A DNA stretch of 64,000 bases, from NCBI GenBank assembly GCA_002104895.1, contig MCFG01000105.1, positions 62,001 through 126,000 on the forward strand, read 5' to 3'. Position numbers and translations under genes: made by a program. Positions 5,822 to 6,120 of this stretch are shown in pieces. This DNA is from Anaeromyces robustus (taxonomy: Eukaryota). Numbering within the stretch: position 1 is the first letter of the stretch; each line of letters starts with the position of its first letter. Under the pieces are notes generated by a model. That model saw nothing but the letters and a program-made list of their open reading frames with translations, did not search any database and was not told where the DNA came from.

Positions 5822-6120
5822 AAAAACAATAAATCCCCATACAGCCCTTAATTCTAAATATAGAATTAAAGTAAAATTGATCTATCCTATTCCACTAGGG
5901 TCGGAAATAGGATCGGCATTTGCCCTACTAGGCTGTCCTACTGTGTTATCAGCATTGACGTTACTGGAGAGGTTGGTTTTAAATTTATTGAACAATATAT
6001 GTTGTCTTTTACAGACAACAGGCATGATATCATTCAATAGAGCCGCAGATCGCAACAAGAATGGGGATTTTGAATAAGTACCAGATTCAGTCTGACACTT
6101 AAACAAACATTCCCATTCCT
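5822..6120 (-). ncRNA. Candidate structured non-coding RNA, family unassigned
   Basis: GC-richer island in AT-rich intergenic DNA with nested helices (5831-5840/6061-6070, 5841-5846/5931-5936, 5848-5869, 5884-5913, 5986-6039, 6075-6101). G-U pairs favour the minus strand, which ends in TTTTT. Confidence 0.5.

Follow-up and report, generated by a model that had tools for sequence, protein, structure and literature searches.

A 5′-truncated L1-like LINE insertion between UGDH and RPL29 of Anaeromyces robustus, with a putative RNA domain at the end of its ORF2

The locus and its insertion

The window (i.e., the whole 64,000-nt stretch of Anaeromyces robustus contig MCFG01000105.1 analyzed in this work) contains several recognizable genes around the insertion described here. 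The gene for UDP-glucose dehydrogenase (UGDH) is represented by several exon frames on the minus strand at 328-3501. These frames are interrupted by a perfect trinucleotide run of the AAT/ATT type (approximately 250 nt, especially 1479-1834), which, depending on the frame, translates into poly-L, poly-Y, poly-I, or poly-N and is presumably intronic. In the region upstream of UGDH, a short-period satellite at 4374-4606 forms a tandem repeat that reads (FIYL)n in three minus-strand frames. RPL29 is also located on the minus strand (7140-7406), with exon frames at 7140-7226 and 7302-7406. Further along, the minus-strand exon frames at 9528-10644 are unrelated to the insertion; based on the motifs GDIHGQ..., LRGNHE..., and SAPNYCGEF, we take them to encode a PP1-type serine/threonine phosphatase.

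Between UGDH and RPL29 lies an island with a GC content of 0.395 at 5901-6100, compared to 0.157 for the whole window, which places it in the top 0.5% of all 200-nt windows. A preliminary description of this DNA, made from the sequence alone, recognized the island as GC-richer but considered it to stand alone and to encode a structured RNA: a divergent housekeeping RNA, an undescribed ncRNA, or a structured SINE-like element. Our analysis indicates a different origin. Window positions 5595-6133 are occupied by one dead, 5′-truncated copy of a LINE in minus orientation, complete with target site duplications (TSDs), and the GC-rich island with its structured RNA domain corresponds to the ORF2 remnant of this copy. 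The parts of the insertion, in the order of its sense strand, are as follows:

6121..6133, minus strand: 5′ copy of the TSD with respect to the sense (minus) strand of the insert, an exact 13-mer match to 5595-5607
5885..6120, minus strand: 5′-truncated ORF2 remnant, the last 78-79 codons (K/EWECLF...SGIG), recognized by its open frame and by homology
5882..5884, minus strand: TAG stop codon of ORF2; a hairpin of 10 bp (5913..5884) has its 3′ foot here
5652..5881, minus strand: AT-rich 3′UTR of 230 nt, with a perfect 9-bp hairpin (5869..5848) and AATAAA
5608..5651, minus strand: poly(A) tail, visible as a plus-strand T run of 45 nt (5607-5651)
5595..5607, minus strand: 3′ copy of the TSD, adjoining the tail

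The minus-strand insert from the truncation point to the end of the 3′UTR (6120..5652) is 469 nt in length. Its reading frame comprises 79 codons within the insert and ends at the stop codon at 5884-5882, while the frame as a whole is open for 96 codons (5882-6172). The AATAAA motif is located approximately 25 nt ahead of the poly(A) tail on the minus strand. The island is thus not a stand-alone unit, as the repeat runs on to 5652 and is followed by the T run. Perfect copies of the 13-mer TAATATTTCTAAT are found at 5595-5607, where it adjoins the tail, and at 6121-6133, where it adjoins the truncation point; the first T of the plus-strand run (5607) is common to the poly(A) tail and the TSD. 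This 13-mer is the longest word common to both flanks of the insert, and a non-homopolymer 13-mer was shared in only 9 of 20,000 random window pairs with the same spacing.

Logan contigs of four sequencing runs (X2, DNA; X13, X15, and X17, RNA) were mapped to window positions 5500-7500. The DNA run alone placed 1619 contigs on this 2-kb stretch around the insert, with a summed depth of 54,000-190,000 over 5634-6102 compared to 59-131 in the flanking bins at 6438-6772; such summed contig depth is a sign of massive repetition rather than a copy number. The repeat depth continues across the 3′UTR (5652..5881) and through the AT-rich stretch to approximately 5634, well past the island as noted earlier. 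At 6119/6121, contigs of all four runs have loose ends that continue into sequence unlike the window. Therefore, other copies are longer on that side, and other copies indeed read upstream into a Cys/His zinc-knuckle-like motif. For the RNA runs, contigs of all three contain the repeat, although these contigs give no strand, ends, or locus of origin. Contigs of the same three runs join 7224 to 7327, corresponding to an RPL29 intron of 102 nt, and the presence of this spliced intron in X13, X15, and X17 indicates that these libraries represent real RNA. The parts of the region without cover from the RNA runs are not evidence of silence.

The repeat is widely dispersed in this species. In a search with the minus-strand frame of the island, 33 of the 34 candidate proteins matched; all are A. 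robustus proteins encoded on separate contigs, share 46-98% identity, and are annotated as hypothetical proteins. A profile search against 1.84 billion representatives returned 133 clusters, all of them 49-463 aa in length. Within the 64-kb window, neither blastn nor tblastn with seven family proteins found a second copy or LINE remnant elsewhere. In addition, a search among longer proteins found the same sequence in eight longer A. robustus proteins. The LINE tail forms the C-terminus of gene models for a beta-glucosidase (P0034, residues 1087-1165) and a C2H2 protein (P0035, residues 1473-1551), and matches were also found in P0037, P0040, and P0041, such that a zincin, a lectin, and an aminopeptidase are represented as well. 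Such gene models probably represent annotation chimeras or LINE fragments that have been exonised. One protein that matches the tail bears an RVT_1 domain.

The element family and the identity of the insert

Among the distant proteins of this family, the same features follow one another in a fixed order, namely, the C-terminal sequence of the reverse transcriptase (RT), the motif R.GYK.D.RVAKAAK, a CPxCC...EHW....C zinc knuckle, the motif FNFLLGGR, and a gap-free terminal block (EW..L..CQ...G...D.PFL..TAA..N.I.PI...). The window peptide is a member of this terminal block (alignment A3). For the scan of metagenome loci, the 17-sequence alignment was too diverse and a 7-sequence alignment was used, which recovered 23 loci; the scan with the close A. 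robustus-type alignment gave 58 pattern matches, none of which was confirmed. Based on tblastn, the window peptide (EWECLF...SGIG) aligns to the extreme C-terminus of the ORF in 21 of the 23 metagenome loci. The tie between the window copy and full-length elements runs through diverged metagenome relatives, for which the best amino acid identity is 38-57%, together with the chimeric gene models mentioned above.

Long ORFs were scanned in L002 (1500 aa), L021 (1396 aa), and L003 (1394 aa), and all three of these ORFs contain both Exo_endo_phos and RVT_1 domains. Among proteins of solved structure, human LINE-1 ORF2p gives the best match to the L002 ORF (E = 6e-28, compared to 8e-19 for R2), such that the likeness to L1 is a best-hit argument. 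A separate ORF1 was not seen on the L002, L021, and L003 contigs. Instead, each of the three ORFs has an N-terminal part of 160-300 aa ahead of the endonuclease (L002, 1432-2330; L003, 61-670; L021, 786-1275), and no Pfam match was found in these parts. A zf-RVT match over the zinc knuckle stayed below threshold (20 bits against a cut-off of 27.5 bits). For the two long frames of the island and the seven family proteins, Pfam gave nothing above noise, and the ESM Atlas had no usable match to P0003.

The architecture at the 3′ end is well conserved. Among the 16 loci that reach a stop codon, 14 have 231-243 nt between the EW codons and the stop, the exceptions being L021 (309 nt) and L017 (201 nt). 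The 3′UTR measures 228-237 nt in the window copy, L002, L009, and L006, with AATAAAG and a TG(C/T)GCC.T end in common, and a poly(A) run is seen in these same four of the 10 sequences that have at least 296 nt downstream. L021 also carries a partial, frame-shifted second copy of the ORF2 tail (5547-5727), approximately 600 nt downstream of the first on the same contig, which indicates nested or tandem LINE remnants.

The combination of a poly(A) tail, TSDs, and 5′ truncation is what target-primed reverse transcription by LINEs characteristically leaves behind. All of these hallmarks were found at this locus, and the insert belongs to a dispersed multicopy family. We conclude, with a probability of roughly 90%, that window 5595-6133 is a 5′-truncated insertion of an L1-like non-LTR retrotransposon (with AP-endonuclease and RT), and essentially nothing in the data speaks against its identity as a LINE insertion. 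By analogy with established LINE biology, the endonuclease of the element would have nicked an AT-rich target, and the poly(A) of the LINE transcript would have been primed on this nick for target-primed reverse transcription. An early halt of reverse transcription would then have produced the 5′ truncation, and a staggered cleavage of the second strand the 13-bp duplication. The window copy has neither a promoter nor an intact ORF and is most likely inert. As an object, it is of an ordinary kind, i.e., a truncated LINE copy.

Three other identities deserve consideration. A SINE-like element was among the options raised in the preliminary description, and the element is indeed retroposed. As regards a SINE, neither a tRNA nor an Rfam match was found, and the body is homologous to ORF2. 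That the source was a short non-autonomous retroposon sharing the LINE 3′ end, be it a SINE or a LINE derivative with an internal deletion, appears improbable to us. The very high copy number and the short lengths of all 133 profile matches would fit such a source, no A. robustus protein was found that joins an intact RT to the tail, and the window copy lacks its own 5′ part and could have come from an element with a chimeric head. Nevertheless, four proteins (P0044, P0123, P0141, and P0038) are continuous from the RT C-terminus through R.GYK.D.RVAKAAK and the zinc-knuckle-like motif, the tail is the end of intact ORFs of 1400-1500 aa in the metagenome relatives, and neither Rfam nor the tRNA scan found a head resembling tRNA, 5S, or 7SL RNA. 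It is highly unlikely that this copy has been domesticated, be it to provide a small protein or an exon from the 79-codon frame or to regulate UGDH or RPL29. The frame is open beyond the insert, and the same sequence serves as the terminal exon in several gene models of A. robustus. However, the proteins to which these models fuse it are unrelated, and chimeric annotation is the likely cause; at the window locus, the open frame has no ATG before M50, none of the 33 protein matches is a gene model at this position, and no RNA contigs join the element to its neighbors. The GC3 of the island frame is 0.35, compared to 0.09-0.14 in five host exons, which makes this frame unlike host coding sequence.

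The reading put forward in the preliminary description, that of a separate gene for a structured ncRNA which runs on the minus strand and ends at TTTTT, can hardly be maintained. It would accord with the strong fold (see below), with the occurrence of the sequence in RNA-library contigs of X13, X15, and X17, and with the outcome of the Rfam check that had been suggested: no match at gathering thresholds in the whole window. A permissive Rfam scan of 5600-6350 (E ≤ 10) gave only the chance-level matches Plastid-clpP (21.7 against 55 bits) and eiav_FSE (13.3 against 40 bits), and ARAGORN found no tRNA. The lack of an Rfam match, however, reflects the fact that LINE coding sequence is not an Rfam family rather than a new class of RNA. 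The TTTTT that had been likened to a Pol III terminator lies inside the 3′UTR of the element, and the repeat goes on for another 180 nt to its true end. The sequence is homologous to the coding end of a LINE ORF2, followed by 3′UTR, poly(A) tail, and TSD. Furthermore, the RNA contigs over 5994-6119 continue into the sequence of other copies and not into the flank of this locus, and at such a copy number DNA carry-over into the RNA libraries is possible. The preliminary description itself had named many dispersed, TE-like copies as a finding that would refute its reading, and such copies are abundant (33 proteins, 133 clusters, and 1619 contigs).

A conserved fold at the end of ORF2

In the window copy, the segment 5822-6120 folds more stably than all 200 of its dinucleotide shuffles on either strand (plus strand, -77.1 kcal/mol, z = -4.19; minus strand, -92.4 kcal/mol, z = -5.54), which agrees with the strong structure noticed earlier. 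The helix arms listed in the preliminary description are all present where it had placed them, although the helices differ in how far they are shared by the family. The 10-bp closing helix is a perfect inverted repeat (5831-5840/6061-6070) that none of 200 shuffles matches in the window copy. However, it is not used in the minimum free energy (MFE) folds of either strand, in which the CCCCAT arm pairs with 6106-6118 instead, and it is not a feature of the family: in 12 relatives, 14 to 191 of the 200 shuffles do as well, and a share of the A. robustus copies have indels in the arm that lies in the 3′UTR. Both arms of the ACAGCC/GGCTGT stem exist, one of them in the 3′UTR; the consensus fold, computed from the coding tail alone, does not contain this stem. 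The long bulged hairpin has its counterpart in helices 5 and 6 of the consensus, and the core of the 11-bp hairpin is kept as helix 3.

The concentration of GC and structure at the end of ORF2 is a property of the family. In all four of the diverged elements analyzed, which were full or long, the GC-richest block of ORF2 is formed by its final 240 nt (GC content 0.40-0.43), with a GC3 of 0.39-0.42 compared to 0.23-0.27 for ORF2 overall. Two elements were scanned block by block, and in both the tail is the most stable block: z is -4.3 for the tail of L002 (+1.5 to -3.5 for the other 17 blocks) and -3.2 for the tail of L009 (+1.8 to -2.0 for the other 12 blocks). Across 15 distinct tails, 12 have a z of -2.4 or lower, and those that fold poorly are L021 (-0.5), L014 (+0.3), and L017 (-1.4).

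The RNAalifold consensus of 12 tails (alignment A5, 74% mean column identity) comprises 43 pairs in eight helices. Helix 1, a stem formed by the EW codons with the PF codons, encloses helix 3. Paired cells make up 94.4% of 515, compared to 91.1 ± 0.5 in shuffles, whereas six slid controls reach 30-44%. Nine pairs are changed on both sides (3.8 ± 1.2 in shuffles), the number of double-change cells is 20 (6.6 ± 2.0), and the covariation score is 0.225 (0.169); none of 500 shuffles attained the observed value in any of these four measures. A fifth measure of covariation, the number of further pair types, is at chance, with 211 of the 500 shuffles doing as well. All of these values have to be read with the fact that the consensus was derived from and scored on the same 12 related sequences. 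In the consensus pair table, 63 of the 515 cells are G-U pairs, which would be mismatches on the opposite strand; the fold therefore belongs to the sense strand of the LINE, i.e., the minus strand of the window. The earlier choice of the minus strand as the RNA strand, made because G-U pairs are possible only there, was therefore sound.

A group of A. robustus proteins (P0009, P0011, P0012, P0014, P0018, P0019, and P0021 in alignment A1) lack 17-24 codons in frame, with the long hairpin at the center of the deletion. The window equivalent of the deleted part is approximately 5963-6013, such that half of the hairpin is removed. This subset suggests hairpin-associated deletion during replication or reverse transcription.

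Codon usage provides a further line of evidence. At identical residues, the identical codon is used in 0.68-0.82 of cases in the tail compared to 0.47-0.57 in the rest of ORF2, while amino acid identity in the same pairwise comparison is similar in both regions. This contrast was found in six of six pairs (Fisher p = 4e-5 to 0.03), which share sequences and are not independent. An antisense ORF was considered as the cause of the synonymous constraint and was rejected, as the plus-strand frame of 84 aa found here is only 40-43 aa in L002, L012, and L001. Folding of 13 distinct sequences predicts, for nine of them, a hairpin across or directly next to the stop codon, and its arms differ among the window copy, L013, and L001.

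The compensatory changes, the synonymous conservation, and the hairpin at the stop codon point to a putative cis-acting RNA domain. The island looks like an RNA gene because the last ~240 nt of ORF2 are at once coding sequence and a conserved sense-strand fold. Much like the 3′ stem-loops of other LINEs (see below), this fold may act in cis as a signal of the LINE mRNA that recruits its own ORF2 protein or stabilizes its own RNA, a reading to which we would give somewhat less than an even chance. By capturing the ORF2 protein or protecting the RNA, the fold would add a "stringent-like" specificity to poly(A) priming. A more specific proposal, which we put forward more tentatively, is that the last ~80 codons and the stop codon form a dual-use domain, both coding and multi-hairpin, that serves as a "stringent" cis signal in a fungal LINE. 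Such a domain would, for instance, capture the ORF2 protein at the mRNA that encodes it when translation terminates, or would license the transcript for reverse transcription in another way. If true, this coding-embedded signal could also account for the very high number of copies that the family has in a genome so extremely rich in AT.

It is also conceivable that the fold of the ORF2 tail has no function of its own. The hairpins, the high GC3, and the synonymous conservation would then be by-products of recent shared ancestry, recombination among LINE lineages at the 3′ end, biased composition, or selection on the peptide. We regard this as a serious possibility, albeit one that falls short of even odds; it concerns only the mechanism and is compatible with the identity of the insert as a LINE. 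Its plausibility derives from the one covariation measure at chance, the poor folding of L021, L014, and L017, the existence of genomic copies that lack part of the long hairpin, and the use of the same 12 sequences for both structure and test. By-products are harder to reconcile with compensatory double changes in excess of all 500 shuffles, the contrast with the six slid controls, or peaks of both GC3 and fold stability exactly in the tail block of independent elements. Neither would they readily account for a codon identity that is raised in the tail at similar amino acid identity, nor for a stop-codon hairpin that is kept with different arms in the window copy, L013, and L001.

Comparison with known retroelements and implications

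The gut-fungus elements resemble L1-clade and L1-like LINEs in several respects. They have Exo_endo_phos and RVT_1 domains in one long ORF with L1 ORF2p as the best PDB relative, a weak zf-RVT zinc knuckle near the C-terminus, AATAAA and poly(A) at the 3′ end, and, in the window copy, a 13-bp TSD in an AT-rich target together with 5′ truncation. They differ from L1-clade LINEs in having a single long ORF with an N-terminal part of 160-300 aa that belongs to no known family, and in the conserved RNA fold, enriched in GC, that makes up the end of ORF2. To our knowledge, such a fold has not been described for mammalian L1.

Structured 3′ ends are known from other LINEs. The stringent-type LINEs of the L2 clade in zebrafish and eel have a 3′ stem-loop that is recognized by their own RT (PMC4176376). 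A monocot lineage of L1 has a conserved structured 3′ end together with L1-type machinery and a poly(A) tail (PMC3472496). Both groups share with the gut-fungus family that RNA secondary structure is conserved close to the 3′ end of the transcript; in this family, a conserved stem-loop with covariation in the 3′ region, a feature of the stringent type, was found. The gut-fungus fold differs from both in that it overlaps the stop codon and the 80 ORF2 codons that precede it. It also differs from stringent LINEs in lying ~230 nt upstream of the poly(A) rather than at the extreme 3′ end, and no partner SINE is known for the gut-fungus LINE. For human L1 and Alu, a conserved stem-loop in the 3′UTR has been proposed (PMC5135761). 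The idea that even poly(A)-dependent LINEs keep a 3′ structural signal is a point of likeness, whereas the human stem-loop is located in the 3′UTR and not at the coding end, the sequences are unrelated, and the hosts belong to different kingdoms.

We found no description of a LINE from Neocallimastigomycota in the literature searched, and within that literature the family appears undescribed. LTR retrotransposons of anaerobic fungi are reportedly covered by Navaratna et al. 2024 (Fungal Genet Biol 172:103897). Those elements and the family described here are alike in being abundant, transcribed retroelements in Neocallimastigomycota genomes, but belong to different classes (LTR in that case, poly(A) non-LTR in ours).

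The conserved, coding-embedded fold is a lead of modest interest. If functional, it would provide a tractable cis-acting RNA signal that overlaps the end of ORF2 in an L1-like element, and it would bear on how LINEs choose their templates, i.e., on cis-preference and on stringent versus relaxed recognition. With the identification of the insert, a false lead to a novel ncRNA has been removed, and this case illustrates that isolated GC-richer islands that fold well in very AT-rich fungal genomes can be the tails of truncated LINEs. The finding also has consequences for annotation, as many A. robustus "hypothetical proteins" and the C-termini of some enzyme models are read from this LINE repeat.
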